From a virus (lineage: Duplodnaviria; Caudoviricetes), in IMG/VR virus record IMGVR_UViG_3300032324_001029, positions 1-26,537 of that record: 26,537 nucleotides of DNA. One strand, 5' to 3'. Below are positions 1 through 18,363 of the stretch, one piece after another. The position numbers were made by a program, and so were the translations under genes. Position 1 is the stretch's first letter; the number at the start of each line of letters is the position of its first letter. Under the pieces are notes generated by a model. It saw only the letters and a program-made list of their open reading frames with translations, was not told where the DNA came from and did not search any database.

Positions 1-1368
1 CTTCTAATACATCTATATAATAAAAATAATCTGTTGCTCTCATACAATATATATACTACTTAAGACATCACTTCACTTTTTCGAGCATTTTTTAAAGCCC
101 ATTAGAGAAAAACATATATAATAGATTCTAAGCAAATGAAAAAATACAAAACAACTATATTACTCATAACACTAACAATATCTTTAATCCTCACCTTAAG
201 AGGCAAAACATATATAGAGAAAATAACAAATATTTTCCTATACTCTGATATCACAACAAAACAATAATAATATAATATTATTTTCGAGGGATTAGAGAAC
301 AAAGAATTTCGAGCATCTTAAAATTAATAATATCTTTTATAGCACTTTTTCACACTAATATGAAAAATCTATAACATCTTACACATTTGCACAAACTACG
401 AGATATAATAGTTATTATTACTGCTCCTTACACACAAGCCTAAGATAAGCTGAAACATAAACATTTCACACTAAATGAGCATAAAAAAATTAGGCATAGC
501 ATAAATCTAAAAAAAATAATAACACCAATATCCTAGTGGAGACCAACGTATATGTCTTTAGAGAGAACATATATCTTAGTGGATGTTTGGTGGAGAGACA
601 GTGGAGACTTTGTGGAGTAATAATGGATAAGATATACATTATAATAAAAGATATATAGATACCAATATAATGAACTTTATATATTTATAGATAATATATA
701 AACATTAACATTAGAAGGAAGGAATATATATTACACACATAGAAAGATAATAATCCACTACAAACACAACAAATAAAAGAAAACACCATCCCAATATTTC
801 GAGGGCTGGTGTTTTTCTATTTAGAGAGATAAGAAGAATAAGATATCTTCTTAAAGGAAGAAATAAATATTTTAGGATAGAAAGTTTAGTTTTTCGAGCT
901 ATTATATTATTTTTCTATAAGAGAGAAAATAATATATATACCATTAGAGAGACAATAAAAAGAATATTTATATATATACTAAAGAATAGTTTCTTTTGTC
1001 TTTAAGCTTTTCTCTTAAGCTTTTATATGGATGTTTTACTTATTGAGATGGATGTTTTACTCTTTAAGATTGATCTGAAATATCGGGGCTCTTAAGAAAA
1101 AACAAGCATTTTTTAAAATGAACTATCAAAAAGAGTCGTAATATATAATATTCTACGTTAGATAAATCTTTTCCTGCAAGTTTTTCGAGCTAATTAAAAA
1201 TAATGTTTGATAATGTTTAGGCTCAGTATTCTTTCACATTATTGCCAGAAAAAAGTGAGGCTAAAATGGGACAATCTTTCTCACAACCCCTTATAGTGTT
1301 GTAAGAAAGATTTAGCTTCAACATTTTATAATACATATACCACAAGAATTTCGAGGCTAAAAATATTT
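1..1368. other. Long AT-rich non-coding region, candidate replication origin/control region
   Basis: No credible ORF. C>G in ~1-520 and G>C downstream. Phased GTGGA repeats at 579-627, direct repeat ATGGATGTTTTACT at 1027 and 1048, hairpin at 780-815. Confidence 0.5.
579..627 (+). repeat. Five (G/A)TGGA repeats at exact 11-bp period (iteron-like)
   Basis: GTGGA at 579, 590, 601, 612 and ATGGA at 623, plus a further GTGGA at 536. ATATCCTAGTGGA (528) is nearly repeated as ATATCTTAGTGGA (571). Confidence 0.75.
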
Positions 1369-1941
1369 ATGAATATACACGCATACAGTACAAGTAGAGT
1401 AAATGGCCCTGGTAATAGATTTGTATTATGGACTCAAGGATGTTCTAAAGGATGTTCTGATTGTTTTAATCCTCTTACTTGGAGTGTTAAAGAAAATATA
1501 TCCTTAACACCAAATCAGATTTTCGAGCTAATTAAGAATTATGATATTGATGGTGTGACAATAACTGGTGGAGATCCTTTAGAGCAAGAAGATATTTTAG
1601 AATTACTAATGTTACTCTATACTTTAAATTTAAGTAAGGGAATAATTCTTTTTACTGGATACTCTATTGATGAAATAAATAAAGATTTTCTTTTGAGAAA
1701 ATCTTTAAGTTATATAGATGTTTTGATAGATGGTAGATATGAGAAGGACAAGAGAATTTCGAGTGGTTTAAGAGGCAGTGAGAATCAAAATATATTATAT
1801 TTCTCAGATAAAATTCACCCAGATGAATTAATGATTGATCAAGAGATAGAGGTGGGTGTAAGTTGTGATAAAATATATGTTACAGGCTTTCCAAATATTT
1901 CGAGGAAAGTTTTGAGGGAGCTTGGAGTAATACTTAAATGA
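1369..1941 (+). CDS. Radical SAM protein, anaerobic ribonucleotide reductase activase (NrdG)-like
   Basis: NGPG-R-VLWTQGCSKGCSDCFN (CxxxCxxC), GVTITGGDPLEQ, FTGY, IDVLIDGRY and LRGSENQ are typical NrdG-family motifs. No nrdD in the window. Confidence 0.85.
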   Translation: MNIHAYSTSRVNGPGNRFVLWTQGCSKGCSDCFNPLTWSVKENISLTPNQIFELIKNYDIDGVTITGGDPLEQEDILELLMLLYTLNLSKGIILFTGYSIDEINKDFLLRKSLSYIDVLIDGRYEKDKRISSGLRGSENQNILYFSDKIHPDELMIDQEIEVGVSCDKIYVTGFPNISRKVLRELGVILK

Positions 1942-2294
1942 CAATAAGAGAACTTTTATCTTTAGAGAGTAAGGGTAGTAATGTGGAAGAATTTTTTGCC
2001 CTCTTATATGGTCAAAACATTCATCCAGCGTTTAAGGTGTTTAATGATCTCTCTATTAACTTTATTAGTTTAGAGGGTATGAGTGTTTTTTGTTTTAGCG
2101 TTGATAGTTATGTTTATTTTAAATTATGTTTTTGTGATGCACCATTTTTAATTTACAAGTTTAATGAAGAGAATGATATTGAAAATGTTTGGTGTTTAAA
2201 TTTCGAGCTTTATAAATCTGCTTTAAGAAGTTGTGTTAAAGCAGTGGATAAGAAATATATTCCAGTAAAAGATATAGATGAAAGAATATTCTAA
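1938..2294 (+). CDS. Hypothetical protein
   Basis: 118-aa ORF overlapping the upstream stop codon. Confidence 0.65.
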   Translation: MTIRELLSLESKGSNVEEFFALLYGQNIHPAFKVFNDLSINFISLEGMSVFCFSVDSYVYFKLCFCDAPFLIYKFNEENDIENVWCLNFELYKSALRSCVKAVDKKYIPVKDIDERIF

Positions 2295-2526
2295 AATAGA
2301 ATATTCTTCTTTTAAGGGGGATAATATGACTAGGAAAAATAAAATGTTGTATGATGCTTTGATCGACTATGTTTCTTATTTTTATAATTGTTCAGATATG
2401 CCAGACAGTGCAAAGATCAATGCGCTGAAAATATTTGAAGCGTTATTAGACGAAAAAATTGATGTTATTGATTTTATCCCTGTAATGAGACAGATGCAAT
2501 TCAGTTTAGATATGGTAGCTGCATAG
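2278..2526 (+). CDS. Hypothetical protein
   Basis: 82-aa ORF in operon; true start may be the ATG at 2326 after AAGGGGG. Confidence 0.6.
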   Translation: MKEYSKIEYSSFKGDNMTRKNKMLYDALIDYVSYFYNCSDMPDSAKINALKIFEALLDEKIDVIDFIPVMRQMQFSLDMVAA

Positions 2527-2624
2527 GAAAAGAACTATCTTTTCCCTTATAATAATAATGAAGAGACAGATAAGACAATGAAGTACTAGATCTACTCTTC
2601 CCTAAACATTTAGTTGTGAGATTA

Positions 2625-2664
2625 AATAAAAAAGGATCCTTTCTAGAAAGGATCCTTTTTTATT
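2625..2664. terminator. Bidirectional terminator (40-bp perfect palindrome) between convergent genes
   Basis: AATAAAAAAGGATCCTTTCTAGAAAGGATCCTTTTTTATT with A/T tracts on both sides. Confidence 0.8.
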
Positions 2665-3067
2665 ATGCATATTTGAGTAATAACTTTATTTCTTCCATTA
2701 GGTTTTCCAATTCATCTTTTGCATATCTTTTGTGCATAGGAAAAGCTCTAACATCTTCATCGTATTCTTCTTCAGCTACGGTATACTCTGGAAGATCATT
2801 TATTAATCTTTCTACTTCTTCTAATTTATTTAATATATTTCTAATATCACTTTCGACGTCAGAAGAAAGATCATTTAAAGATGGGTCCTTGTTTAAGATT
2901 GGCACTCTATCTAATATTTCTAGACCATCAGTGTTAATCTGTGCTTCTCTTTTTAATAACATTTCGAGAGCAATAGTGTTATAACCAAGTTTCTTTAAAT
3001 TTTCTTCGTTCATAATGATTTTTTGTTCCGTATATTGTAGCTTTATACCTTCTATGATATCATACAT
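2663..3067 (-). CDS. Hypothetical acidic helical protein
   Basis: 134-aa ORF with protein-like composition, ending at the bidirectional terminator. Start codon uncertain. Confidence 0.7.
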   Translation of the reverse strand: MYDIIEGIKLQYTEQKIIMNEENLKKLGYNTIALEMLLKREAQINTDGLEILDRVPILNKDPSLNDLSSDVESDIRNILNKLEEVERLINDLPEYTVAEEEYDEDVRAFPMHKRYAKDELENLMEEIKLLLKYA

Positions 3068-3069
3068 TT

Positions 3070-3987
3070 ATGAACCTATCCCTGTGTTGTATTAGTAATA
3101 TCCTAGCTGAGCAGGGATACAAATTTCGAACAATGACTTATAAGAGTTTTTCGAGTAAGGAGAGGGCAGAATCATTAGAGAAACTGTCCCTTATTGTTAT
3201 TAATAATTTCAATGTATCAGAGAAAATCGTTCGTCATTGTGCTGCTAATAATATTAAAGGATATAGACTTTCGAGTGATCTTTGTCCTGTAATAAAACAT
3301 CCGGACGTTATGATAGGATTAGAGGACCTTCCTAATTATTCTGATATAGAAGAATCAATTAAAGATTTATCCGCAGCAATAAAAGAAACAGGCATTAGAG
3401 TTAGTGCACATCCCTCTGAATATATTACTCTTACCTCTGATGATCCAATTAAAGTGCAGCATAGTATTATTGACTTAGAACTACACGCTGAGATTTTCGA
3501 GCGCTTAAGTTTAGAGAGATCTTATTACAATCCTTTAAATATACATATACGTAAAGAGGGAGATGCTAAGGAACTATGCGATACGTTTATTAGTAATTAT
3601 AATAAGCTTTCAATTTCAGTTAAGAGTAGATTAGTATTAGAGAACAATGATACTGGCAATACCTGGACCGTTTCTAATCTTAAGAAATACTTTTTCGAGT
3701 CTTATGGTATTCCTGTTACATTTGATAATCTTCATCACAATATGTTGAATCATGGTGTTTCTCATAAGGATGCATTTTTCGAAGCATACCTTACCTGGAA
3801 CTGTACTCCTATCTTTCATTACTCTGAGGGAAAAAATGGCACTAGAGCTCATAGGGATATGGGTGAAGATCTTCCTATTAATTATAATAAAGATGTACTG
3901 TTTGATGTAGAATTAAAAGGTAAAGACTACGCAATATTGGATATATTAAAAAGATACAATGATAGAAAAATTACAACAGTTGATTGA
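3070..3987 (+). CDS. uvsE: UV DNA damage endonuclease (UVDE/UvsE family, TIM barrel)
   Basis: YRLSSDLCP, RVSAHP, LNIH, RLVLENND, FDNLHH, FHYSE, AH and DVELKGKD match the UvsE metal-binding motif series. Confidence 0.92.
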   Translation: MNLSLCCISNILAEQGYKFRTMTYKSFSSKERAESLEKLSLIVINNFNVSEKIVRHCAANNIKGYRLSSDLCPVIKHPDVMIGLEDLPNYSDIEESIKDLSAAIKETGIRVSAHPSEYITLTSDDPIKVQHSIIDLELHAEIFERLSLERSYYNPLNIHIRKEGDAKELCDTFISNYNKLSISVKSRLVLENNDTGNTWTVSNLKKYFFESYGIPVTFDNLHHNMLNHGVSHKDAFFEAYLTWNCTPIFHYSEGKNGTRAHRDMGEDLPINYNKDVLFDVELKGKDYAILDILKRYNDRKITTVD

Positions 3988-4174
3988 TTCACTTGATGAA
4001 AGTGAATCAGAGAGTATTATTAATTTACTAGAGAGCTTGATTTTATCATGGGAAGATGATAAAATCAACTTGTATACAGAAATTAGTGATTTCCATATAT
4101 ATACTATATTAAAAGTATTGAGGTTGTTTCAAGATGAGCAAACAGAAGCTGCAGAAATTACAATCATCCCTTAA
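3959..4174 (+). CDS. Hypothetical protein
   Basis: 71-aa acidic ORF overlapping the end of uvsE. Confidence 0.55.
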   Translation: MIEKLQQLIDSLDESESESIINLLESLILSWEDDKINLYTEISDFHIYTILKVLRLFQDEQTEAAEITIIP

Positions 4175-4361
4175 TGAGGAAGAAGCTGGATTGTTGTTTC
4201 ATCTATTATTAAAATCTCTTGAAACAGCTAATCATCAAAAAGTAGAATATAGCGATGAACCACTGCGATACATGAATACTGAAAGCTTAATGGTAAACTT
4301 GAATTTAGATCTACCAATTAACAAAAGCTTTGTTGATAAATTTAAAGAGGCCATTAAATGA
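4134..4361 (+). CDS. Hypothetical protein
   Basis: 75-aa ORF in operon. Confidence 0.6.
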   Translation: MSKQKLQKLQSSLNEEEAGLLFHLLLKSLETANHQKVEYSDEPLRYMNTESLMVNLNLDLPINKSFVDKFKEAIK

Positions 4362-4639
4362 ATCCAGAAATTATCTCTCAAGAACAAAGCAAAAAGTTTT
4401 ACACTGATGTAATTAAAAAATATTCTTTAGATGTTCGCTGCCCAAAAACAACTACAAAGTTTTTCGAGGGCATTTATTTAAAGAATAGAACTCATAGGAT
4501 TAATATTACTAATCACTTTGATAACAATTATGCTACATTTACTAAATGGAGTCCTAAGGATTATAAATGTGAAACGCTATGGATTAATAAAAGTGTTTTT
4601 CGAGACTTCTGGAGACATTATATCAGCTCTGCAAAATAA
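4358..4639 (+). CDS. Hypothetical protein
   Basis: 93-aa ORF with ATGA overlap. Confidence 0.65.
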   Translation: MNPEIISQEQSKKFYTDVIKKYSLDVRCPKTTTKFFEGIYLKNRTHRINITNHFDNNYATFTKWSPKDYKCETLWINKSVFRDFWRHYISSAK

Positions 4640-4702
4640 CTCTTTGCAATCCCAATAAGAGTCTGGTAATATAAGACATCAATAGAAAGTGTCGAAGCCA
4701 AA

Positions 4703-5377
4703 ATGACCTACCAGAGTGTTTTAGAAAGTGTTGATAGCCATAAGGTAAATCAATATAAGGAATATTGGAATAACGTCGCTCCACAAACAGATGGAGAGAT
4801 ATTTCAAAGATGGTTGTTCGCATATACATCTATCCATACTACATGGGAAAGCAATGTTAGAGCATACAATCATATCAAGAATTTCGAGTCGTGGATTAGT
4901 GATAAAGACCAACTTGCTCATTTATTATTATTAGGTAGAGCAGGTTGTCATAATCAACGCACAAAGTATATATGGGATTTTTCGAGCAAGTTTTGGGCTA
5001 ATCCAGAAAAGTTTAAAAAGACTAATAAGGAGAATTGGTTTAAGTTTCGCAATCGTCTCTCAAATGAATTGTGGGGCATTGGATTAGCAAAAACCAGTTT
5101 CGCATTAGAGTTATGTTATCCTGAAAAGTGTCAAGCAGTTTGTCTTGATGTTCATATGCTCCGTTTACTAGGAATGAATGAACAGGGATATAAGAAAGAT
5201 AGTGCTAAAGATGTTGCTGAATATGAACAGGGAGAAAGAAAGTGGCATTATAGAGCCAGCAAAATGTCTGCTCCTAATTATATTGCAAGATGTATCTATT
5301 GGGATGTAAAACAAGGACATAACAATTCGAGGTATTGGTCATCTTGTTTAGAGAACCAACTACACTTTGATTTTTAG
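4703..5377 (+). CDS. HhH-superfamily DNA glycosylase/AP lyase, Ogg-like
   Basis: LWGIGLAKTSF (helix-hairpin-helix with Lys) followed by AVCLDVHMLRLLG (catalytic Asp-x-His), as in N-glycosylase/DNA lyases. Confidence 0.75.
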   Translation: MTYQSVLESVDSHKVNQYKEYWNNVAPQTDGEIFQRWLFAYTSIHTTWESNVRAYNHIKNFESWISDKDQLAHLLLLGRAGCHNQRTKYIWDFSSKFWANPEKFKKTNKENWFKFRNRLSNELWGIGLAKTSFALELCYPEKCQAVCLDVHMLRLLGMNEQGYKKDSAKDVAEYEQGERKWHYRASKMSAPNYIARCIYWDVKQGHNNSRYWSSCLENQLHFDF

Positions 5378-5516
5378 GATTTACCAGAGAATGATTTTGG
5401 CTTCTTGTTCTCTGGTAAAAATGAGGGAGAACAATGACGTTCTCCCTCCACTTAGAAGCTAAAGAATATTCTTGCACACTTATCTAATTAGTGATATATT
5501 ATTAGAGAGGCCAATT

Positions 5517-5759
5517 ATGAAAGTCAATTTTAACGTGACAGGTACAATGGAAATACCTGACGACGCAATCAAGCATTATGATGTTGCTGGTAAATTATAT
5601 GCATTAGAGTTTAACGATATAATGTATATGCTTCAAATGTGTATTGTTGCTGAAGGTGGGGCTTGGGGACATGAGACAATCCATCAGTTCGAGGAGATGG
5701 AAAATCATAGCATAACTAATGTTCGCTATGATGATGCAGAATTTAGTGAAAGCGAATAA
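5517..5759 (+). CDS. Hypothetical protein
   Basis: ATG 5517 lies after a TTGCAC..TATATT promoter and GAGAGG; the track's TTG start is the -35 box. Confidence 0.7.
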   Translation: MKVNFNVTGTMEIPDDAIKHYDVAGKLYALEFNDIMYMLQMCIVAEGGAWGHETIHQFEEMENHSITNVRYDDAEFSESE

Positions 5760-5964
5760 CGCAAAACAGTTAGCTAGAAGGAGTAAACATTTAGCTAACT
5801 GGACCTTAATAACTTTTAATTTTTATCATCTGCAGCTAGATGGTTACAATATATACAAGAGAAATATCTCTAGGAACTATTGGCAATTCACTGTAGCAGA
5901 TGATATAACATCTTGTACATTTATGATGTACGAGAAAGAAGCCAAAAGATGCCAAACTGGGTAA
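5719..5964 (+). CDS. Hypothetical protein
   Basis: Fills the gap between neighbours; start uncertain. Confidence 0.45.
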   Translation: MFAMMMQNLVKANNAKQLARRSKHLANWTLITFNFYHLQLDGYNIYKRNISRNYWQFTVADDITSCTFMMYEKEAKRCQTG

Positions 5965-6584
5965 TGAACGAACTCACCTGTATCTTCCAAACACAGGAAG
6001 AGTATAATGTTTTTAAAGAGAAAGTCAATCTTGAAGGATTGTTCAACTCCTTCATCCCTATGCCTGAAGTTTTAAATGGTACTTTATCCCCACATATTGC
6101 TCCAGGTGATTTTATCAATGGAGTAAATAAGCGCAAGAATACTAATTTTCTCACATTAGAGGAAGTTGCTTCTTGTGATGATGAGTGGGATTCTCATCGT
6201 GCTAAAGAGATTGCAAAAAATATTAAAGCATTCGAGGAAACTGGTTATCATGACTGGTATTCTTGGAACCTTAATAATTGGGGTGTTAAGTGGGACGCTG
6301 TAAGACCAACTGCTAAGTATGACCTTCTTACAATTACCTTTAGTTTTGACTCTCCTTGGGGTTGTCCTGAGCAATTCGTTAAGGAGTTGTCCAAACTGTA
6401 TCCTAACGCTACATTTAAGATGGTTTCTGGCTCCATTGAAAACGATTGCCATTACGAGTTTACCTGTGAAGATGGTAAATTCGAGGAAACCTGTTCTTAT
6501 GAATCTTTCAAACATGCAGTAGCAGATGGTAAATGGGGTGGATGGGATGAATGGGAAATGCTTTTCGAGGAGAGTGAAGTATGA
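5949..6584 (+). CDS. DUF1281/YubB ferredoxin-like family protein
   Basis: MPNW-x-N start, FNSFIPMP, WYSWNLNNWGVKWD, FDSPWGCPE. Confidence 0.8.
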   Translation: MPNWVMNELTCIFQTQEEYNVFKEKVNLEGLFNSFIPMPEVLNGTLSPHIAPGDFINGVNKRKNTNFLTLEEVASCDDEWDSHRAKEIAKNIKAFEETGYHDWYSWNLNNWGVKWDAVRPTAKYDLLTITFSFDSPWGCPEQFVKELSKLYPNATFKMVSGSIENDCHYEFTCEDGKFEETCSYESFKHAVADGKWGGWDEWEMLFEESEV

Positions 6585-6802
6585 CACTCCAAGAACTAAT
6601 CGCTAAACTTCAGGAATTAGAAAAGAAATATGAACAGTACAGCAAAGACACTGAAGTTGTAATTGCTGTACATTCTAAAAATGAATATAATCCAGAAGTA
6701 AGTTTAGATTATATTGATGAAGTAGTACATCCCGCTCTAGATACATTCTCTGGTTATATTTGCCGAATTGTCTTATGTGGCGAAATCGAGGGAGAAGACT
6801 AA
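6581..6802 (+). CDS. Hypothetical protein
   Basis: MTLQELIAKLQ-type phage orphan, ATGA overlap, followed by a terminator. Confidence 0.7.
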   Translation: MTLQELIAKLQELEKKYEQYSKDTEVVIAVHSKNEYNPEVSLDYIDEVVHPALDTFSGYICRIVLCGEIEGED

Positions 6803-6811
6803 ACTATTTCG

Positions 6812-6841
6812 AGGGGAGATTTTCGAGTCTCCCCTTTCTTT
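6812..6841 (+). terminator. Intrinsic terminator
   Basis: AGGGGAGA / TCTCCCCT stem plus T-tract. Confidence 0.75.
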
Positions 6842-6866
6842 ATGTTAGAGATGATATAATACAGCT

Positions 6867-7058
6867 ATGGAAAACATCAAGTGGATTCGAGCAATGAGTG
6901 ACCGTTTGAGAGATGAACTTTCGAGCGAGTATGATGATGTAACAAAAGATTTAATTATTCGAGCTTTTATGCGTGGGTTATATCAAGACCCATCTATAGT
7001 AGAAGAACTAAAATCGAGCTCCTTAATTGAATCAGATTATTTCGAGGACCAAGAATGA
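6867..7058 (+). CDS. Hypothetical protein (probably leaderless)
   Basis: 63 aa; TGA-TATAAT lies 6 nt before the ATG. Confidence 0.7.
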   Translation: MENIKWIRAMSDRLRDELSSEYDDVTKDLIIRAFMRGLYQDPSIVEELKSSSLIESDYFEDQE

Positions 7059-7261
7059 AACTGATTTGTATGGCTGATGGATTGTTCTTATATAGGATTA
7101 ACAATCATTTTATCGTTACTGACCAAGATAATAACATCTTGAAGGAAGCTAAGACTGTTGGAACTTGTGACAGATATATATTACAAGTTTTAAATTCAAG
7201 AAGAGCAGCAGAAAAGTATGCAAGCTCCCTTAAAGAACTAAAAGCACTAGGCATATTATGA
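7055..7261 (+). CDS. Hypothetical protein
   Basis: 68 aa, ATGA overlap. Confidence 0.65.
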   Translation: MKLICMADGLFLYRINNHFIVTDQDNNILKEAKTVGTCDRYILQVLNSRRAAEKYASSLKELKALGIL

Positions 7262-9390: not shown

Positions 9391-9414
9391 TAGGGATGGT
9401 AAATACCATCCCTA
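9391..9414. repeat. 24-bp palindrome copy 1
   Basis: TAGGGATGGTA-AA-TACCATCCCTA; TTGACA begins after a 28-nt gap. Confidence 0.95.
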
Positions 9415-9501
9415 AAAAAAAATAGCAAATTTTTTTATTCTCTTGACAGTCCTGGGTATGTGTGGTAAGTGGTTAGCTCTAAAACTCTCTTTTAATTTGT
9501 A

Positions 9502-9530
9502 TTGCAATCCTTATGCACAGATGGTAATAT
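9502..9530 (+). promoter_or_regulatory. Sigma70-type promoter
   Basis: TTGCAA-17-TAATAT. Shares TATGCACAGATGGTAATATTC with the promoter at 11055-11083. Confidence 0.65.
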
Positions 9531-9567
9531 TCAGTATCACATTGTTTGATAAGGAAGCCAACCCGTT

Positions 9568-10890
9568 ATGTCGAATATGCCTAAGTCGTTTCTTGAACTG
9601 GACGATGCACCAGTCAAGGTCGCACCAAACACCTCTGTTTTCACCAATGCCCAGTCCCTTCAACCCCGTGAAGGTGCTACAGCAACGCAAGATGCCAATG
9701 GCACTTGGTTCAATGCTATCGGCTTGCAATCAACATCAACCCATCGCCACGTTGCCAAAGTTTGGCAAGACAAGTGTACCCCGTTTTCAGATTTCATTGA
9801 AACCATCAAGTCTCAATCAACCAACAAAGTTGATGTAATTAAGCCGGAATCTGAAATCCGTCTTAAGGATGTTGACACCTTGGTTGATGGTACACCTCTC
9901 ACTGATTCAGGCATGAATTCCTTGCGGGTTTTTGCAAATATGCCATCGTCTATCATCTCCTTCCTTAAGGAACGTGAATACAATGACGATTTGGTCAAGT
10001 ACATGAATACAGAGTTGGATAGACGTGAAACCCAGTGGAATAACAAGGGCAAGGAAAAGCGCACTTTTAATGTCCGAATCCGCCACGATGGTGAGGGCAA
10101 TAATGTAGTCCGTGCAATCGTATCGGAACGATACGGTGTGATTGATAATTCAGAAGCAATGGAAATGGTAGCCAATGCCCTTCCATCTTTGAACGATGCC
10201 CTTGCTTCTCACCTCTTCAATGATGGTGATGACATCTATGGTAACATCCTCCTTCCAGACTATATGAAGAGCGAACCAGACTCTGATTATGGGGTAGGCA
10301 TTGCATTTAAGAATAGTGAAATACGCAATTCCACTTTCAAAATCTCACCATTCCTCTTTCGTGCCATTTGTCTTAATGGAATGATTTGGGGTAGACAAAA
10401 TGCTAAAGATGAAATCAACGTCAACCAAAAGCACATGGGTAAGATTGACCTTGAAGACCTTCAATTGCAAGTTACCCAAGCAATCAAGGTTGCATTAACA
10501 CAAGGCAATGATATGTTGACCTTGCTTGGATATGCAAAGCAAGTTAAGGTCACTAACCCTGTCGCTGTAATTGCCCAGTTGGCTAGGGATGAAAAGATGA
10601 CCATTGAACAGGGTAAACTCTGGCACAAGGGCTACTTGGATTCCCTGCACGAACGTCATGGAGATGTTCACGAAAAGTCTGCCTTTGGTATCATCAATGG
10701 CTTGACACGCTCTGCCCAAGATTACACCGGCGCAAGCCGTGAAGAGATGGAAACCTTAGCAAGTAAGATACTTGCACCATCCATTGATTCATCTTTACAG
10801 GAGATATCAAAGCGATGGGGTCTTATTGACGCTAGAGCAAACCAATTGGAAGAAAAAACCTCTAGACAATACCAGTTTGTGGGCGCATAG
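9568..10890 (+). CDS. DUF932-like protein
   Basis: RAIVSERYGVIDN, GIAFKNSE, PFLFRAICLNGMI, H-G and FGIINGLT follow the DUF932/DUF945 pattern. Confidence 0.7.
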   Translation: MSNMPKSFLELDDAPVKVAPNTSVFTNAQSLQPREGATATQDANGTWFNAIGLQSTSTHRHVAKVWQDKCTPFSDFIETIKSQSTNKVDVIKPESEIRLKDVDTLVDGTPLTDSGMNSLRVFANMPSSIISFLKEREYNDDLVKYMNTELDRRETQWNNKGKEKRTFNVRIRHDGEGNNVVRAIVSERYGVIDNSEAMEMVANALPSLNDALASHLFNDGDDIYGNILLPDYMKSEPDSDYGVGIAFKNSEIRNSTFKISPFLFRAICLNGMIWGRQNAKDEINVNQKHMGKIDLEDLQLQVTQAIKVALTQGNDMLTLLGYAKQVKVTNPVAVIAQLARDEKMTIEQGKLWHKGYLDSLHERHGDVHEKSAFGIINGLTRSAQDYTGASREEMETLASKILAPSIDSSLQEISKRWGLIDARANQLEEKTSRQYQFVGA

Positions 10891-11003
10891 CCCATAAACC
10901 TTCCAATAAGGACATTATAATTGCACTAAATGCTCTTATAGTGTCCTTATTTGTGTTTAAATACACCAATGATCAGCTATAAAATTTATTTGAACTTTCC
11001 TTG

Positions 11004-11027
11004 TAGGGATGGTCAGTACCATCCCTA
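11004..11027. repeat. 24-bp palindrome copy 2
   Basis: TAGGGATGGT-CAGT-ACCATCCCTA; TTGCGA-17-TAATAT follows after 27 nt. Confidence 0.95.
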
Positions 11028-11102
11028 ATTAAAATTGTCAAAGTTATTTAATTGTTGCGAGGTCTATGCACAGATGGTAATATTCTAGTGAGGAAACCTA
11101 TT

Positions 11103-13208
11103 ATGAAAATCGCAGAAAGCAGTGTTCAGATTCAGTCTTCAGGCATCCAGTCTGAAGCCTATTTCACCATTAAAGAATCCAATGTTGGTCATATCTTTGG
11201 TATCTTACGCAACCAACTCTACAGCAACAAGCCATTAGCAATCATTCGTGAATACTGCACCAACGCATTTGATGCACACGTTGATGCTGGCATCCCTGAG
11301 CGTCCTATTGAGGTATCGTTCCCAACACATTTCAAGAAATCTTTGACCATTCGTGATTTTGGCAAGGGTCTTTCTGAGAATGAGGTGTTTACCGTCTTTA
11401 ATTCATACGGTGAATCAACCAAGCGTGGAACCAATGACCAAGTTGGAATGCTAGGATTAGGTAGCAAATCAGCATTCTGTTATGTGAATGATTTCAAGAT
11501 TGTATCTCATCACGATGGTGTTAAGTCTGTTTACCTTGCTTACATTGATGAATCCAACAAGGGTAAGATATCCTTGCTCTCAAGGGAAGCCACAGATGAA
11601 ACTGGCTTGGCAATTGATATTGTAATCAAGTCTGAGGATTTGTATTCCTTCCGTGAGGTTGCTTCTCAATTCTTGTATGAATTCAACCCACAACCAATCG
11701 TCTTAAATGATGATAATGTGGTCAATAACTTAAGCAAGCAAGACCAAACATCATACATCATTCGCAATGATAGATATGCTGTTGTCAATGACTCACGTAA
11801 ATCCAACACTGTCAGAATGGGTAATGTGAATTACGATTTTGACATATCAGACTTGCGATTGACTTGGGAAGAAAAGAACGACCTTAATGCTTACGTCTAT
11901 GCTAAGGTTAAGATATTTGCACCTATAGGTAGTGTAGTTCCATCTGCTTCCCGTGAATCGTTGGAAATGAACAGTCAAACGATTGAATACATCAAAAGCA
12001 CCTTGTTTGAAATCAAGGAAGAGATTAGGTCTCAAGTTCAATCCAAGTGCGTATTAATAGATTCTATGTATCAGTTTGCTTTGGCTCTTCGAGATTGCAG
12101 TACCTTAATGAGGTACTTTAAATTCTCCATCAACTATCGTGGTGAAGAGTATAACTACATGAAGCACACGAATTATTTCACAAAGGAGAAATTTCCTACC
12201 ATCAAGGGGATTAGCAACGTCTATGATGGTAATAGAAATAATATTAAAGTAACCAATTACTTTACGCCTTGTGAAGACCAAACCATCTTTTATTTCTACA
12301 AGAATGTAAAGGACAATACTGTTCGTAGAAGGATTTTGGATTCTGGCTTGATTACGCAACAGTCTTACCTGTTGGAATTTGACAATCAGACTGATGCAAT
12401 GGACATTGTGAATCACAAAGACTTTGCGGGTATTAAGTTTGTAGATGTTTCAACATTGAATTACAACCTTAACACGAGCAGGAAATCTGCTGGTAAGTAT
12501 GCTGTAAGTGAGGTGTATGAATTCCTTGAGAATCGCGGTCAGGTTCATGCATCTTGGCAAGCGACATCCCTTTCATTGCAAGATACTGAAGGTGTTTACA
12601 TTGAAATCAAACGCTTCCAGCCAGTGCGTAAATTCAGTCAACATCGCAACTTTGATTCAGTGTCAGACTTGCAAATGCTAATTGATAATGCCAGAAAAGT
12701 CGGTGTTGTCATCCCCAAAGTTTATGGTGTCAAGTATTGCGACATTGATAGTCTGGGCGATGGATGGGTGGAACTTGGTGACTATGTTCAACAAGCCATC
12801 TACAATTTCTCAGATAATGAAATTGAACGAATGAACTCCGCTAGGATTACTTACAAGGTTAAGGAAGAATGGCGTAATGCATTCCATTACGGAATGATTG
12901 ATTGTGACCAAGATTTGACACGTATCAAAGAAATCATCAATCAGCACTACAACAGTTCTTATAGCGTCTCAAACTTGGGTATAAATCTTACGAATATGTT
13001 AGATTACGGTTTCAAGTTTGACCTTGATACAAGTATGGAATTGGATGACTTGATTGAGAAGACACTTAACAAGTACCCGATACTTAGATGCTTGTTCGAT
13101 TATGATAGGTATACAGCCATTGCATCAGAAGGTATCAACAAGTATTGGCAGAATGTCAATGGATACCTTAAGAGTCAAGACTATCTGCACAGTGAGGGTT
13201 TGGGCTAG
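11103..13208 (+). CDS. rIIA: rIIA-like protein (N-terminal GHKL ATPase)
   Basis: LYSNKPLAIIREYCTNAFDAH, IRDFGKGLS, STKR-TNDQVGMLGLGSKS, SASRESL; lies upstream of an rIIB-like gene. ATG 11103 preferred as start. Confidence 0.88.
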   Translation: MKIAESSVQIQSSGIQSEAYFTIKESNVGHIFGILRNQLYSNKPLAIIREYCTNAFDAHVDAGIPERPIEVSFPTHFKKSLTIRDFGKGLSENEVFTVFNSYGESTKRGTNDQVGMLGLGSKSAFCYVNDFKIVSHHDGVKSVYLAYIDESNKGKISLLSREATDETGLAIDIVIKSEDLYSFREVASQFLYEFNPQPIVLNDDNVVNNLSKQDQTSYIIRNDRYAVVNDSRKSNTVRMGNVNYDFDISDLRLTWEEKNDLNAYVYAKVKIFAPIGSVVPSASRESLEMNSQTIEYIKSTLFEIKEEIRSQVQSKCVLIDSMYQFALALRDCSTLMRYFKFSINYRGEEYNYMKHTNYFTKEKFPTIKGISNVYDGNRNNIKVTNYFTPCEDQTIFYFYKNVKDNTVRRRILDSGLITQQSYLLEFDNQTDAMDIVNHKDFAGIKFVDVSTLNYNLNTSRKSAGKYAVSEVYEFLENRGQVHASWQATSLSLQDTEGVYIEIKRFQPVRKFSQHRNFDSVSDLQMLIDNARKVGVVIPKVYGVKYCDIDSLGDGWVELGDYVQQAIYNFSDNEIERMNSARITYKVKEEWRNAFHYGMIDCDQDLTRIKEIINQHYNSSYSVSNLGINLTNMLDYGFKFDLDTSMELDDLIEKTLNKYPILRCLFDYDRYTAIASEGINKYWQNVNGYLKSQDYLHSEGLG

Positions 13209-13236
13209 TAGGTTTCCTCAAATTATCTAATAGCTC

Positions 13237-13269
13237 AAAAATGGAGGCTTTCGAGCCTCCATTTTTTTT
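13237..13269 (+). terminator. Intrinsic terminator after rIIA
   Basis: AAAAATGGAGGCT-TTCG-AGCCTCCATTTTTTTT. Confidence 0.85.
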
Positions 13270-13281
13270 GATACATACACG

Positions 13282-13305
13282 TAGGGATGGTACCTACCAT
13301 CCCTA
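13282..13305. repeat. 24-bp palindrome copy 3
   Basis: TAGGGATGGTA-CC-TACCATCCCTA between rIIA and rIIB. Confidence 0.95.
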
Positions 13306-13401
13306 AAAGAAACTAACAAATATATTTATTTTCGATTAGAGTTTGCATTTCGAGTTAAGAATATGATATTATCAGTATATCGGAAATAGGAGATTGGTGT
13401 T

Positions 13402-14553
13402 ATGGAATTAAATGCACAGATTGTGAATCCAGATATGAACTCTGGACACATTTTTTTACTACTTGATGGGAAAGAGTATTCCATCAATGCTGGAAATTCG
13501 AGTTTCTCAAAAGCACTTGAGGCTTACAATGCCAAGGACTGGGAATCTTTCATCTATATTGTAAATCCTGAGATTCGCTTGAAGAGCCTCTACGCCTCTT
13601 ATGAAGGAATCGAGGTCAAAGATGGCAACCTTTATGTCTTTGGTGACCCTATTCATTCTACCATTGCAAAGCGTGTTATCTCATTCATTGAACACGGTTT
13701 GGATTGCGTTCACTTGTTCAAGTTTATCTTGAAATTAAATATGAATCCATCTAAACGTGCTGTAGATGAATTGTATACCTTCCTTGAGCATCGTGCTTTG
13801 CCAGTGACTGACAATGGAAATTTCCTTGCTTACAAGGCTGTTCGTGCAGATTACACTGATAAGTATAGTGGTAAGTTCCTGAACACTATTGATAGTGTAC
13901 TTGAAATGCCACGTAACAAAGTAGATGATAACAAAGAGAATGGATGTTCATACGGTTTCCACGCAGGTAGTGTGGACTATGCCAAGAACTTTATGGATAG
14001 AGATGGGCATTTGATGCTTGTTGAAATCAATCCTGCCGATGTTGTTTCCATCCCAACAGATTGCCAATTCCAGAAATTGCGTACTTGCAAATACAAGGTA
14101 GTTGGTGAGTATGAGATTGACCTCAATGACCCTATGTATGCATCACGCTTCCAAACTGACCAAGATGATGATGTAGATGTTTGGAACGATGAGGAAGAGG
14201 ATGACCTCTGCTCTGGTTGCAACATGGAATATAATTCGTGGTGTTGTGATTGCGAACAGTGTGGTGGCTGTTGTAACTGTGACGGTGAGCCTGATGCACC
14301 TAAGACTGAAATCCAACTCCAATTAAATCTTGACAACAAGATACAAGAGGATGATTGGAAAGTAAAGCGATTTGAATATATCAAGATGCTCAATTTCTTG
14401 TATTCCAATCGTAGACCTGCTGTAGCCAATGCTATGCGTAATTTCTATAGCAATGTTAGTCATCATCATCTCATCAACCCTGAATTCAATGTCCTGTTGA
14501 ATTTCACATCTGATGAGGATGCACACAAGATTTATCTTGAATACACATCATAG
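13402..14553 (+). CDS. rIIB: rIIB-like protein with acidic/Cys-rich C-terminal extension
   Basis: NPSKRAVDELYTFLEH, LPVTDNGNFLAYKAV, MPRNKVDDN, CSYGFHAG, INPADVVSIPTD, KLRTCKYKVVGE. Confidence 0.9.
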   Translation: MELNAQIVNPDMNSGHIFLLLDGKEYSINAGNSSFSKALEAYNAKDWESFIYIVNPEIRLKSLYASYEGIEVKDGNLYVFGDPIHSTIAKRVISFIEHGLDCVHLFKFILKLNMNPSKRAVDELYTFLEHRALPVTDNGNFLAYKAVRADYTDKYSGKFLNTIDSVLEMPRNKVDDNKENGCSYGFHAGSVDYAKNFMDRDGHLMLVEINPADVVSIPTDCQFQKLRTCKYKVVGEYEIDLNDPMYASRFQTDQDDDVDVWNDEEEDDLCSGCNMEYNSWCCDCEQCGGCCNCDGEPDAPKTEIQLQLNLDNKIQEDDWKVKRFEYIKMLNFLYSNRRPAVANAMRNFYSNVSHHHLINPEFNVLLNFTSDEDAHKIYLEYTS

Positions 14554-14573
14554 TATTCAGCTACTGTCAAGAG

Positions 14574-14605
14574 TATCCCCGGAGAAATCTGGGGATATTT
14601 TTTTT
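14574..14605 (+). terminator. Intrinsic terminator
   Basis: TATCCCCGGA-GAAA-TCTGGGGATA plus T8. Confidence 0.85.
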
Positions 14606-14618
14606 GCTACTCTTCTAT

Positions 14619-14642
14619 TAGGGATGGTAGATACCATCCCTA
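14619..14642. repeat. 24-bp palindrome copy 4
   Basis: TAGGGATGGTA-GA-TACCATCCCTA. Confidence 0.95.
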
Positions 14643-14683
14643 ATAATATCTGTCATATTTTAATTTTATGATATAATACTAAT

Positions 14684-15013
14684 ATGGAAACTTGGGAATG
14701 GTATTGCAAAGTGGATTCTGGATACACGCTTAATGGCACAATCAATTTCCACTGTGATGAGAATCAATACTTAGAGATTCCTGATAGTCTTTGGGATTGT
14801 ATGTTTATAATCAAGCTGCCAGATTATAAGAGTGAAAAGTATTCGTCTATCACTTTAGAATTAGTAGACAATCCAATAAGAAAACACTTATTACACTCAG
14901 ACATATTAAAAGTAAAAGATATGTATATATGTTTTGTTTATGGCGAATATGTTGAAACTATGTATGGATTATTCCCTTTCTCTGAAACAGAAAATCCATT
15001 TAAACAGGACTAA
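14684..15013 (+). CDS. Hypothetical protein (probably leaderless)
   Basis: 109 aa; TATAAT lies 6 nt before the ATG. Confidence 0.7.
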   Translation: METWEWYCKVDSGYTLNGTINFHCDENQYLEIPDSLWDCMFIIKLPDYKSEKYSSITLELVDNPIRKHLLHSDILKVKDMYICFVYGEYVETMYGLFPFSETENPFKQD

Positions 15014-15053
15014 CTTGCTCTAAATTAGAACATCCTAATATAAGGAGAATCTA

Positions 15054-15818
15054 ATGGCTTTCGTTTATCAAGCAGGCGTTTTTACTAGTTATGCAATCAA
15101 TCTTGGGTTAGCTGATAAACTATTTCAAGATCAACTTATTGCATCACAATCTGGTACTGCAGCATCATATACTCAACTATCGCGTACTTTAGTATCAAAC
15201 ACTATTAGCCTACCAGGAAATACCAATGCTAACTATGATGCTACTCTTGTTTTAACACAAGATTTAAGATCTACTGAAGACAATCTACCAGCTACATTGA
15301 GATTGTTTTACGAACCAACTTTAAGATCCACTGACACATATTTTCAGGGTGTAGTGGGATCATCATTTAGAAACTATTTTGACAGTAAAACAACAGACAA
15401 AACAATAGATTACACTGTTACATCTCCTACTTCTTCTGCTACAGGATTTTCAAGTTTTAGAGATCTTTACAGAAGAGTTTACAGCTCTGAACTTATTTAT
15501 AAATTATATAACTATAATTCATCAGGAGTTTTAGCGTCAACAGCTGGAACATTTGGTTTTGCTGGTTCTTTACTGGAGCTTAGAAAATATTTCTCTACTG
15601 GAACTGGTGGAACTATAACGTTAAGTTTAACAAGAACATCTGATGGTGGATCTGATTCAGTATCATTGTATTTTGGTCCTTATTCAGGAACAGGTGCATC
15701 TTATTCTAATATAGTTACTGATCCAGGTAGTGGAACATTATATTCATCTATTGATAGTGTATCAGTTTCAGGCCTATCATCTGGAGCTGGAAGAACATTT
15801 GAAATATGGATTAGATAA
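15054..15818 (+). CDS. Ser/Thr/Gly-rich protein, possibly virion-associated
   Basis: 254 aa with TAAGGAG RBS. Beta-rich S/T/G composition typical of structural or decoration proteins (inference). Confidence 0.7.
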   Translation: MAFVYQAGVFTSYAINLGLADKLFQDQLIASQSGTAASYTQLSRTLVSNTISLPGNTNANYDATLVLTQDLRSTEDNLPATLRLFYEPTLRSTDTYFQGVVGSSFRNYFDSKTTDKTIDYTVTSPTSSATGFSSFRDLYRRVYSSELIYKLYNYNSSGVLASTAGTFGFAGSLLELRKYFSTGTGGTITLSLTRTSDGGSDSVSLYFGPYSGTGASYSNIVTDPGSGTLYSSIDSVSVSGLSSGAGRTFEIWIR

Positions 15819-15838
15819 AAATTTTTGAGATATTCTTT

Positions 15839-15862
15839 TAGGGATGATATCTATCATCCCTA
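15839..15862. repeat. 24-bp palindrome copy 5 (variant)
   Basis: TAGGGATGATA-TC-TATCATCCCTA; precedes the tRNA promoter. Confidence 0.95.
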
Positions 15863-15928
15863 TTTTTTTTGTCAATAATATTAATAGTTCTTGTATGACT
15901 TGATTGTGATGGTATAATATTAGCGTAT

Positions 15929-16009
15929 CCTCCGGTGATGGAACGGTAGACATGATTGACTTAAAATCAATTTCCGCAAGGAGTACGAGTTCGAATCTCG
16001 TCTGGAGGA
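15929..16009 (+). tRNA. tRNA-Leu(TAA)
   Basis: Acceptor CCTCCGG/CTGGAGG+A, GGTAGAC D-loop, ATTGA-CTTAAAA-TCAAT, variable arm, ACGAG-TTCGAAT-CTCGT; no encoded CCA. Confidence 0.92.
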
Positions 16010-16017
16010 TTTGGTTT

Positions 16018-16089
16018 GGTTCCATAGCTTAACGGTAAAGCAGAATCCTTTTAAGATTTTGAGTGCAGATTCGACTTCTGCTGGAGCCA
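16018..16089 (+). tRNA. tRNA-Lys(TTT)
   Basis: GGTTCCA/TGGAGCC+A, GAATC-CTTTTAA-GATTT, GCAGA-TTCGACT-TCTGC. Confidence 0.88.
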
Positions 16090-16130
16090 TATAACAAGGT
16101 TCTTGTTTTCATTACGCAGTATATAACTGT

Positions 16131-16595
16131 ATGGAAACAAGAACCTGTAGAAAATGTAAAAATAAAATCCCATTCAAAAAATTGATTGATGGGAAAATTC
16201 GCAATTTATCAAATAGAAAATTTTGTCTTGATTGTAGTCCTTTTGGAAGTAAAAACACTAAGCCAGATATTGATAAACAGACTGTAAAACCATCTGGAAC
16301 ACCTTACTCTGATTGGGATGAATCTTATAAACAAGCTCATCGAGATAAGATGGCAAAAAAAAGAATTGAACGTAAGAATGAATTGGTTAAACTTTCTGGT
16401 GGAAGTTGTTCTATTTGTGGTTATGATAAATGCAGGAATGCTTTGTCTTTTCATCATTTAAAACCAGAAGAAAAATCTTTTGGGCTATCAGCAGAAAATT
16501 TGCACAATCGGCCTTGGGATGATATATTAGATGAGTGGAAGAAATGTGTTTTAGTATGCTTGAATTGTCATATGGAAATTCACTCTTCTGAATAA
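16131..16595 (+). CDS. HNH endonuclease with N-terminal Zn-finger
   Basis: CRKC...FCLDC, then CSICGY...LSFHH...KCVLVCLNCHMEIH; located in the tRNA cluster. Confidence 0.85.
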   Translation: METRTCRKCKNKIPFKKLIDGKIRNLSNRKFCLDCSPFGSKNTKPDIDKQTVKPSGTPYSDWDESYKQAHRDKMAKKRIERKNELVKLSGGSCSICGYDKCRNALSFHHLKPEEKSFGLSAENLHNRPWDDILDEWKKCVLVCLNCHMEIHSSE

Positions 16596-16712
16596 TTTCA
16601 CTTGGTATGTTATTGCCTCCTTTCAAGCCAAGTGAAATCAATCCCCCTCTGTGACCAAATTTAGAGGGGGATTTCCTATTGCAGTACATACAACAGATGA
16701 TATAATACAAGT

Positions 16713-17207
16713 ATGGAAAACACTATTATTGCTCCCACATACGAAGTCAATGTTAAGTTTAGTTGGAAATACCCCGGCAAGCCAATTATAAATGTTGAAA
16801 AGCAAGGTTATGTTCAAACAACGCAAACTGAAGACAAGTTGATTGCTGAAGAGTTTATCAATACATTCCTTGGTAACTATGAGATTGGCATTTGCGAAGT
16901 CACCAATATGAGTATACTTTCTATCAAGAAAATATCTACATTTGATGAATGGGTGGAGAGATACAAACCAATTAAGAACGAGTTTGAAGAATATGGTTCT
17001 TTTGATGGATGCACTTTTGATTACACTGAAGATGACCAATGGGAATTTGTAAAGAAGCAAAATCCAGAAAATGTTTGGACAATGGTATGGGCTGAAGATA
17101 CTCATGCTATCATTCCCGGTTTTCACTGGGTAAATAGAGATAGTTATTTTGTTACAGAATTACCTGTCCTAAAAGAAGACTTGTCAACAGAGTTTATTGT
17201 GATATAA
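16713..17207 (+). CDS. Hypothetical phage protein (probably leaderless)
   Basis: 164 aa; C-terminal VWT...PGFHWVNR-Y-VTE pattern; TATAAT lies 6 nt before the ATG. Confidence 0.75.
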   Translation: MENTIIAPTYEVNVKFSWKYPGKPIINVEKQGYVQTTQTEDKLIAEEFINTFLGNYEIGICEVTNMSILSIKKISTFDEWVERYKPIKNEFEEYGSFDGCTFDYTEDDQWEFVKKQNPENVWTMVWAEDTHAIIPGFHWVNRDSYFVTELPVLKEDLSTEFIVI

Positions 17208-17213
17208 TATCTT

Positions 17214-17277
17214 CACAAGGTCGCTCATAACCTTGTGTTTAATCCCTCTTCTCGCTCATAGGAAGGGGGATTTTTTT
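17214..17277 (+). ncRNA. Candidate ~65-nt small RNA with two hairpins sharing the loop TCGCTCATA
   Basis: Promoter TTGTCA(17181)..TATAAT(17203). CACAAGG-TCGCTCATAA-CCTTGTG, then ATCCCTCTTC-TCGCTCATAG-GAAGGGGGAT plus T-tract. Confidence 0.55.
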
Positions 17278-17289
17278 GCATTTTAAATA

Positions 17290-17313
17290 TAGGGATGATA
17301 TCTATCATCCCTA
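17290..17313. repeat. 24-bp palindrome copy 6 (variant)
   Basis: TAGGGATGATA-TC-TATCATCCCTA, identical to copy 5. Confidence 0.95.
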
Positions 17314-17547
17314 AAACTATCTTTCAATAAAAAGATTTCTTAACATTTTTCTAACGTGACTTGCAATCTTACACGCAGTTGGTATAATATTACTAATTGA
17401 ATTGCTCTTGTAGTTCAATCCTCTAGATTACAGTCTGTCTCTATCAGTAACTCCTCCAAGGTCTAGAGAGAGAAAAAGCTTATGATAAAAACAAAAAATC
17501 ATAAGCTTTTTTCTTGCTTATTCCTATCTAATAATATACACTGTGAT

Positions 17548-17778
17548 ATGAAACACGTATTGTATGAGGTTACAGATAATTGGGATATTATCATCAAGTT
17601 AACTTTTGAAAACTACACTTATCTTAATGCTTTCATTGAGCAACATACTGCTGACAAAAAGTATGAGCCAAAGTTTCTTGTTCTTGAAGTTAATGATGAG
17701 GGTGATATTGATTTCCTTAGAATATATAATGGAGTCAAAGAAACTTCCAAAAAATATGTTGTTGACTTTGTAGATTAG
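17548..17778 (+). CDS. Hypothetical protein
   Basis: ATG 17548 preferred, because the track's upstream extension runs through a hairpin and promoter. Confidence 0.65.
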   Translation: MKHVLYEVTDNWDIIIKLTFENYTYLNAFIEQHTADKKYEPKFLVLEVNDEGDIDFLRIYNGVKETSKKYVVDFVD

Positions 17779-17910
17779 TGATATACTTTGTATGTTCAAG
17801 ATGACTACAGCATCAAGAATAAAATCCAGAATGTGGTGATTCTGGAGCATTGTGTGAAGAATGCTATATCTCCTTACCGTGTTCGTTCTGTCAGCATTCT
17901 TCACACTTTT

Positions 17911-17979
17911 GGGTGGGTAGCTTAATATTAAAGCAGAGGACATAAACCTTTGAAATGGGTGTAATTCCCATCCCACTCT
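17911..17979 (+). pseudogene. Atypical or degenerate tRNA-like element
   Basis: All four stems form (GGGTGGG/CCCACTC, GCTT/AAGC, AGAGG/CCTTT, ATGGG/CCCAT). D-loop lacks GG, T-loop is TGTAATT, anticodon loop ACATAAA lacks U33. Confidence 0.65.
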
Positions 17980-17983
17980 TTAA

Positions 17984-18056
17984 GGGCGATTAGCTTAATG
18001 GTTAAAGCAGGGGACTCATAATCCCTTGAGTGGGGGTTCAAGTCCCTCATCGCCCA
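17984..18056 (+). tRNA. tRNA with CAT anticodon (Ile2-like or elongator Met)
   Basis: GGGCGAT/ATCGCCC+A, GGGGA-CTCATAA-TCCCT, GGGGG-TTCAAGT-CCCTC. Confidence 0.9.
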
Positions 18057-18171
18057 TTGTTCCTGGTTGGTTGGTGTTTTGCATGTCCTACTCCTCCCCT
18101 CATTGAAATATATGAGGGGATTTTTTTGACATCACTATACCATTGTGATATATTATTATTGAGGAAAAGAA

Positions 18172-18363
18172 ATGCCAAACGATACATTACAATATTTATC
18201 AGATAAAACTGAACACGATTTGTTGGTGATTCTTGAGGGCTTTAAAATGCTCTTGGCTGACGCAGATTTGTTTGATATGCTTGCTGAAAAATTAGATTTG
18301 TCTGACGATGTTCTTGTAGAAATCCGTGAAGATGTTAGCAAGTTTATGGCAGACGTGGTATAA
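18172..18363 (+). CDS. Hypothetical acidic protein
   Basis: 63 aa, GAGG RBS, TTGACA..TATATT promoter upstream. Confidence 0.7.
   Translation: MPNDTLQYLSDKTEHDLLVILEGFKMLLADADLFDMLAEKLDLSDDVLVEIREDVSKFMADVV

Follow-up and report, generated by a model that had tools for sequence, protein, structure and literature searches.

The closest documented pattern to the one reported here is that of phage Chi sites clustered near a genome end. In the available part of one report (PMC12315714), such end-clustered sites favour one strand, with 20 on the top and 3 on the bottom strand in LLS and 32 and 0 in MD8, and Chi richness of the LLS type accompanies the lack of a phage recombination module. The accessible text on P1 (10.1101/2021.07.08.451572) proposes that Chi sites near ends derived from the packaging cut site (pac) drive recombination of linear DNA, and argues that P1 Chi is a DNA signal from a density that is alike in coding and non-coding regions and a polarity that is independent of the coding strand. 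Here we describe a field of the hexamer TTCGAG at the head of a 26,537-nucleotide (nt) stretch of viral DNA (IMG/VR record IMGVR_UViG_3300032324_001029; hereafter the window), which is a fragment (26.5 kb) of a freshwater jumbo phage whose capsid protein is related to that of Bacillus phage G. The field proves to be a genuine cis feature that is conserved and under strong selection; on present evidence it belongs to none of the tested families of elements, and it most plausibly works in the manner of the end-clustered phage Chi sites.

Selection on a one-strand word

The window contains 40 copies of TCGAG, of which 33 fall within positions 1-7050 and only 7 in the 19.5 kb beyond, and a single copy of the reverse word CTCGA (at 24680), with none in 1-7050. 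Thirty-one of the 33 copies extend to TTCGAG and 25 to TTTCGAG. Eight copies crowd into 6786-7046 and the next is found only at 12089; downstream, TTCGAG occurs five times, the copy at 13250 being the loop of a terminator. The consensus around the field word is (A/T)(A/T)(T/A)TTCGAG, where the preceding base is usually A or T and is C at 0 of 207 pooled sites. These numbers reproduce the counts of the original prediction, made by inspection of the letters. Its further claim, that codon bias does not explain the motif, also held: TTCGAG is present 31 times in 1-7100, where an order-2 Markov model predicts 3.0 copies, and the 14 open reading frames (ORFs) of the patch hold 22 sites against 2.1 +/- 1.3 in a codon shuffle that preserves the amino acids (maximum 7; 0 of 1000 shuffles reached 22). 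A null based on downstream codon usage gave 2.3 expected sites in these ORFs, with a maximum of 9. Codon or dinucleotide bias as the source of the field is ruled out by the Markov and codon-shuffle nulls. The sites occupy all three frames, nine of the 31 are non-coding, and one lies on the plus strand within a minus-strand gene.

The field recurs in related phages. In the relative G001 (358 kb, 89% complete) there is one field, with 46:0 sites by strand in 12.6 kb, and the remaining 346 kb holds 19 and 29; TTCGAG also comes out as the top word of this genome when every 6- and 7-mer is scanned without bias in windows of 8 kb. The prediction of a directional signal at the DNA level thus gains from a field that is local and single in this genome. 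Fields were also found in G003, G004, G007 and G010; those of G008 and G009 (45% GC) are weaker, and G011 has a weak TCGAAA variant. Across the group the fields are 6-11 kb long with ~3-5 sites per kb. We further collected 80 metagenome loci anchored on the NrdG-like gene of the window, a set that includes near-duplicates and is not one of independent loci. The field is present in 47 of the 47 loci with at least 50% identity (1028:19 by strand) and in 3 of the 33 loci below 50%. It is absent from G012 and from the whole record of phage G, was not seen in Tunturi_5 as judged by pattern counts, and is missing from the 140 kb examined of the 548 kb of G015. A literature search, with poor coverage of subscription papers, found no description of the TTCGAG/TTTCGAG word or of a comparable field.

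Other polar words were rejected as fields: GCCAGAG in G012 and GTCTGGA in G015 are promoter -35 boxes, and CAAATCT in G015 is the N-terminus of a paralogue family. G012:365000-427500 and G015:155000-169000 carry tens of near-identical early promoters, one per gene, with a conserved non-canonical -35 box.

We analyzed the dependence of the word on genes using strand counts pooled over 22 loci (140 kb of core). Plus-strand ORFs hold 276:6 sites (4.3/kb), DNA outside ORFs of at least 100 amino acids 214:1 (4.0/kb), and minus-strand ORFs, some of which may be spurious, 47:1 (2.1/kb). With the same reservation about spurious ORFs, minus-strand ORFs of the upstream tail show 28:1, the plus strand again being dominant. 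Individual genes agree with this. The conserved UvsE motifs FSS and LSS are written TCG-AGY in four of four gene copies inside the field and with TCT/TCC codons in both copies outside it; the conserved rIIA motif IRE is CGA-GAG in the one inside copy and CGT-GAA in all three outside copies. An rIIA paralogue inserted in the field of locus L005 has five sites, its downstream paralogue none. The word is therefore gained at synonymous sites only inside the field, and its dependence is on position, not gene; the moved genes, together with the polarity kept whatever the coding strand, imply selection on a DNA word at a place on the chromosome. This selection is strong enough to recode synonymous sites when genes enter or leave the zone, an outcome in line with the synonymous-site check that the original prediction had suggested. 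The second rIIA-like gene within the field lies at L005:7269-9248 and at L392:8559-10436, and the word was acquired there.

Reverse-strand sites number 8 in the pooled core, a background level at which they are neither favoured nor purged, and in the pooled loci the field sites are irregularly spaced with no helical phasing. Together these properties indicate that the reader is probably moving or single-stranded in its recognition, and not a static coat. It is accordingly very unlikely that the field is a parS-like or silencer patch under a static protein coat, or an RNA-level signal. The field is local and dense and adjoins a likely origin, as such a patch might, but a protein that binds statically should tolerate either orientation over kilobases, and field sites are asymmetric and irregular where sites of the parS or tubC kind would be palindromic or regularly spaced. 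Moreover, ParA, ParB and TubZ were not found in the 89%-complete G001 (300 proteins against PHROGs, 147 against Pfam), which also disfavours the centromere-like coat that had been among the first suggestions. A signal in mRNA would track gene direction, and is ruled out by the polarity kept in the minus-strand ORFs of both core and tail.

A second word, TTAGAG (often CCATTAGAG), is co-enriched (95:29) in the same zone as TTCGAG, which in the window is 1-7100 and includes the AT-rich gap described below. Since it follows gene strand in minus-strand ORFs (8:13), it was rejected as a variant of TTCGAG and is treated as a separate word.

A phased repeat array at the head of the field

An AT-rich gap holds the anchor of the field, an array whose direct repeats recur every 11 bp (Table 1). 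Over 24 loci, site density to the right of the array is 5.2/kb in the first 2 kb, 2.5-4.6/kb up to 7 kb and ~1/kb thereafter; to the left it is 2.7/kb in the first kb and ~0.9/kb beyond, with no sites at all in 5 of the 24. Polarity does not switch at the array, and the sparse left tail keeps to the same strand. A flip of polarity upstream, which the original prediction had proposed to check, was thus not found, and because of this the field does not show KOPS-like convergence. FtsK KOPS and SpoIIIE SRS are similar in being short polar words for a moving motor that become denser near the target; they differ in being genome-wide and in switching strand at the target, whereas the field is local and lies on the same strand on both sides of the array.

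The equivalent of the gap is the second-largest ORF-free stretch in G001 and the largest in G003 and G009. The gap is hypervariable, yet keeps TTCGAG sites, a bipartite element and the 11-bp-period array. In the array, GTGGAG is present in 18 of 18 gaps examined, and a two-unit array pattern in 39 of 59 loci screened, two of these being chance matches outside the gap (37 real). A blind scan for non-coding arrays of 10-12 bp returned one match each in G001, G011 and, weakly, G009, each time in the gap where the field begins; it missed the arrays of the window and of G003, matched elsewhere in G008 and gave 17 matches in the repeat-rich G010. Direct repeats at the field head were noted by eye in G008 and G010, and the fields of G008, G009 and G010 begin at a repeat locus. 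The left third of the gap has a negative GC skew in 18 of 18 cases, and the right third a positive one in 15 of 18. Of 24 loci, 11 have the local minimum of cumulative skew within ~110 bp of the array, while in 12 this minimum lies to the right of the array by 0.2-1.05 kb.

The nature of the repeats suggests that the array is likely either a replication origin or a pac; it is identified here for the first time as origin- or pac-like, and gives substance to the earlier placement of the motif beside a putative origin. Were it an origin, built of iterons or DnaA-like boxes, the field could be read by the replication machinery: (i) as a zone for loading or priming, situated on the lagging-strand template of a rightward fork, or (ii) as a polar fork barrier that makes replication one-way. 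We regard this explanation as rather unlikely. Features shared with iteron and DnaA-box origins are the 11-bp direct repeats, the AT-rich gap and the local skew minimum. The array unit is close to the reverse of the DnaA box consensus, the field is densest right beside the array, and the phage additionally encodes DnaB, a DnaC-like loader and DnaG, with Pol III alpha, clamp and clamp loader also present in G001. Against this stand the lack of a polarity switch at the array and of helical phasing among the sites. Four-fold sites in G001, G003, G009 and G011 show no replication skew that switches along the genome, and it is the field-less G012 that has a one-way genome-wide skew. We also know of no fork barrier or primosome site that takes the form of a dispersed hexamer, and of no counterpart to a multi-kilobase polar hexamer field behind origin or pac repeats. 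An iteron array was not found in the replication gene cluster of G001. The initiator candidate beside dnaB/dnaC, at 102475-103248 of G001, gave weak leads below 0.9 (Phg_2220_C, gp59 N) and no Foldseek match at E <= 0.001.

If the array were instead a pac, the small terminase might bind the field, or the terminase might scan along it, and in this way the site and direction of packaging would be set. The single locus per genome, the phased repeats and the one-sided start of the field in distant relatives would suit such a role. Immediately upstream of terL, the genomes G001 (59957-60637), G008, G009, G010 and G011 share a conserved gene whose position makes it a small-terminase candidate; tblastn did not detect it in G012 or phage G. 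However, ~100 other core genes share this presence pattern, and the candidate is only 30-53% conserved as compared with a nearly invariant word. Known pac recognition regions, moreover, span a few hundred bases and not 6-11 kb, and we consider the explanation unlikely. The predicted folds of the initiator candidate (pLDDT 70) and of the small-terminase candidate (pLDDT 74) gave no clear structural match for either protein. SPP1 oriL with its replisome organiser, as covered by the accessible text of one account (PMC5615212), served as an origin comparison.

The core pattern of the bipartite element in the gap occurs in 30 of 59 loci screened. By its sequence the element resembles a leftward promoter of the sigma70 type (TTGCAG 1179-1174, 18 nt, TAGAAT 1155-1150), and possibly fires right as well. 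This promoter-like element, with its fixed spacing, points into the gap even where the next gene on the left is convergent, and it may drive a primer or a non-coding RNA.

A proposed Chi-like role in end processing

Considering the array and the field together, we tentatively propose that TTCGAG is a Chi-like signal in an end-processing field anchored at the array. A double-strand end would be made at or near the array, either by a pac cut or as the free end of a rolling-circle tail from an origin; alternatively, the end might form at the far edge of the field. A helicase-nuclease entering from the end would be slowed at the word, and the DNA would then be handed to RecA-type recombination, whereby the end is saved and the genome circularised or concatemerised. 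The reader could be a host enzyme of the AddAB type or a phage-encoded helicase-nuclease, and the strand read would be CTCGAA (bottom) if it enters at the array and TTCGAG (top) if it comes from the right. The end site, the identity of the reader and the strand are all three what we infer. A directional or single-strand reader is indicated by the strict polarity with reverse sites at background level, and the single local field per genome and the density peak just right of the array are consistent with this reading. So is the headful packaging with terminal redundancy that is proposed for phage G, the nearest cultured relative by capsid protein (PMC5646251).

The field resembles the Chi sites of LLS, MD8 and P1, as far as the available texts describe them, in the short asymmetric word, the one-strand bias, the local clustering, the presence in both coding and non-coding DNA and the selection through codon choice. 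It differs in its word, which is T-rich, and in density (~4 per kb as compared with ~1 per kb). Further differences from the Chi phages, within the same texts, are the phage's own recombination genes, the array anchor, the lack of a Chi-like pattern in two genomes of the candidate host family and a link to a genome end that is only proposed.

The host is probably a member of the Armatimonadota, which we offer as a lead and not as a host assignment. The two best ClpP matches are from Fimbriimonadaceae (60%) and Chthonomonas (58%), in a scan of 5 of the 64 parts of the genome set, and a DUF1559 prepilin-type protein is placed in clusters dominated by Armatimonadota. A search of 175 genomes from this candidate family gave no CRISPR spacer that matches the phage; short spacer matches were dismissed as tRNAs, a terminator-like stretch, repeats or chance. 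Genomes of this family encode PD-(D/E)XK nuclease domains in ORFs of ~950-1240 amino acids, which by size would be AddAB-like.

Several observations weigh against the Chi-like reading. First, genomes of the candidate host family, which may not include the true host, do not carry the word as expected of a host Chi: G024 has 506 TTCGAG against 417-538 expected, so that the word is not over-represented, and lacks replichore bias (the plus strand has 100 copies over the initial 1.19 Mb and 145 over the remaining 1.55 Mb, and a sample of 80 kb is split 54:53), G186 has 725 against 786 for the reversed control with only a slight bias, and 41 genomes of the family show no consistent excess over the reversed control. 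Second, the richest 8-kb stretches of LLS and P1 hold 9 and 7 sites in our recount, which makes the field ~4x denser, and its T-rich word contrasts with the G-rich Chi words in the accessible parts of the papers. Third, G001 has its own UvsX/RecA-like recombinase, RecJ and other nucleases, unlike the LLS class as the available text presents it. Fourth, several close relatives show a plateau, a late peak and a sparse left tail rather than a simple decay, and assemblies run through the field region. Finally, the field was not seen in G006 (98% capsid identity, 88% complete), and phage G itself is without one. Unitig depth over 9-1439 is about half of that downstream in four of four runs, and G001-like pieces show a similar step in two of four; because the graph branches at 1410-1439 and strain splitting is an adequate explanation, this step near 1.4 kb was not used as evidence.

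A possible though doubtful alternative is a chromosome-architecture module of the phage's own, where the array would serve as origin and DNA-end site and be followed by a multi-kilobase one-way hexamer runway for a phage-encoded motor, making the module the phage's equivalent of Chi or KOPS. The motor might be a helicase-nuclease, a translocase or a terminase, and the same doubt attaches to this form of the idea, in which both word and reader would be new and the word is written by way of synonymous codons.

Two phage systems with strand-specific or stepwise features were also considered. The field might mark the DNA that enters first and load a translocase to draw in the remaining genome, similar to the two-step entry of T5-like phages. 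Its length of 6-11 kb is near the 9.7-kb terminal repeat of T5/BF23 given in the available part of one report (PMC10644984), it heads a tRNA-bearing early region of small genes, and it ends sharply in each genome. Such entry would need a fixed left end; many relatives carry sites left of the array in late-type genes, and contig depth over the field is not above that downstream, which makes the explanation quite unlikely. A role for the words as places where one strand of the virion DNA is nicked is still more improbable. According to the accessible text of PMC3517423, the nick motifs of T5, phiKMV-like phages and tf lie on one strand only and in all contexts, and resemble the field in this restriction to one strand. 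As described there they are far fewer, longer and spread along the genome, with 14 sites of a 9-bp consensus in tf and five major nicks in T5 as against 30-47 hexamers in ~10 kb here, and no nickase candidate is tied to the field.

How phages of 350-480 kb define, protect and rejoin their ends and start replication is largely unmapped in uncultured groups. The locus adds a clade-wide cis module to this picture, in which a polar word and a conserved promoter element accompany an array that is a candidate origin or pac. If under the Chi-like reading a host AddAB-type enzyme were the reader, TTCGAG would be the first Chi-like word from a phylum that has been little studied, as the literature searched yielded none; a phage-encoded reader would imply a new directional signal for a DNA motor. 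A local scan for polar words may also serve, from sequence alone, as a pointer to origin or end regions in uncultured jumbo phages.

Landmarks of the window and its relatives

Table 1. Positions of the field and of neighbouring features in the window.
Feature	Position	Strand	Description
TTCGAG field	79..7046	+	31 TTCGAG (33 TCGAG), ~4.4 per kb; 0 on the - strand
AT-rich, ORF-poor gap	49..1368		26% GC; local GC skew turns from negative to positive across the gap
Direct repeat array	576..630	+	five units, 11-bp period, ~NWRGTGGA(G/T)AC; iteron- or pac-like
Bipartite non-coding element	1081..1190		conserved: ATCGGGGCT, then CGTAATATATAnTATTCTA, then CCTGCAA
NrdG-like radical SAM gene	1369..1941	+	first gene to follow the gap; relatives were anchored on it; 3 sites
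Minus-strand gene	2663..3067	-	carries + strand site at 2963
UvsE/UvdE UV endonuclease gene	3070..3987	+	4 sites; 0 in two orthologues outside the field
Ogg-HhH glycosylase-like gene	4703..5377	+	3 sites
Final dense cluster	6786..7046	+	8 TCGAG; end of field
First promoter-linked palindrome	9391..9414		upstream of the DUF932 gene; beyond the field

The final cluster of the field covers a terminator-like hairpin (6811-6836) and a gene for 63 amino acids (6867-7058). The far edge differs by lineage, and among the 19 loci mapped the dense run stops before the DUF932 gene wherever that gene follows. The original prediction had also stated that the motif does not overlap the domain of palindromes. 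This is correct for the window, where the field ends 2.3 kb short of the first palindrome, and fails in L392, where a promoter palindrome is located inside the field. The 24-bp palindrome has at least 13 copies in 9391-26519 (e.g., 9391-9414, 11004-11027 and 13282-13305), upstream of sigma70-like early promoters. Related phages carry palindromes in the corresponding positions, each phage with a sequence of its own, which suggests that a phage regulator co-evolves with them. In G010, the DNA directly upstream of the field (22000-33100) consists of dozens of short paralogous ORFs that start with MINTDCV and are built from a 12-bp repeat.

The genes of the window include those for NrdG-like, UvsE, Ogg-like, DUF932, rIIA, rIIB and HNH proteins, and five tRNAs, besides which an Rfam scan of the window returned nothing. 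The nearest cultured relative by capsid protein is phage G (47.5%). G001 encodes terminase, portal and capsid proteins and, in addition to the replication and recombination genes mentioned above, sigma factors. It also encodes (L025, L030, L022) GroEL, DnaK, DnaJ, ClpP, a ClpX-like ATPase, gyrase A and B and a NusG-like antiterminator, and its DUF1559 prepilin-type protein is of a type typical of Armatimonadota. About 20 regularly spaced repeat copies on one strand at G011:428000-438000 could be a CRISPR array or a promoter repeat. The tRNA at 17911-17979 of the window, called as Tyr with anticodon ATA, scores 42 bits with Rfam, below the other four tRNAs.

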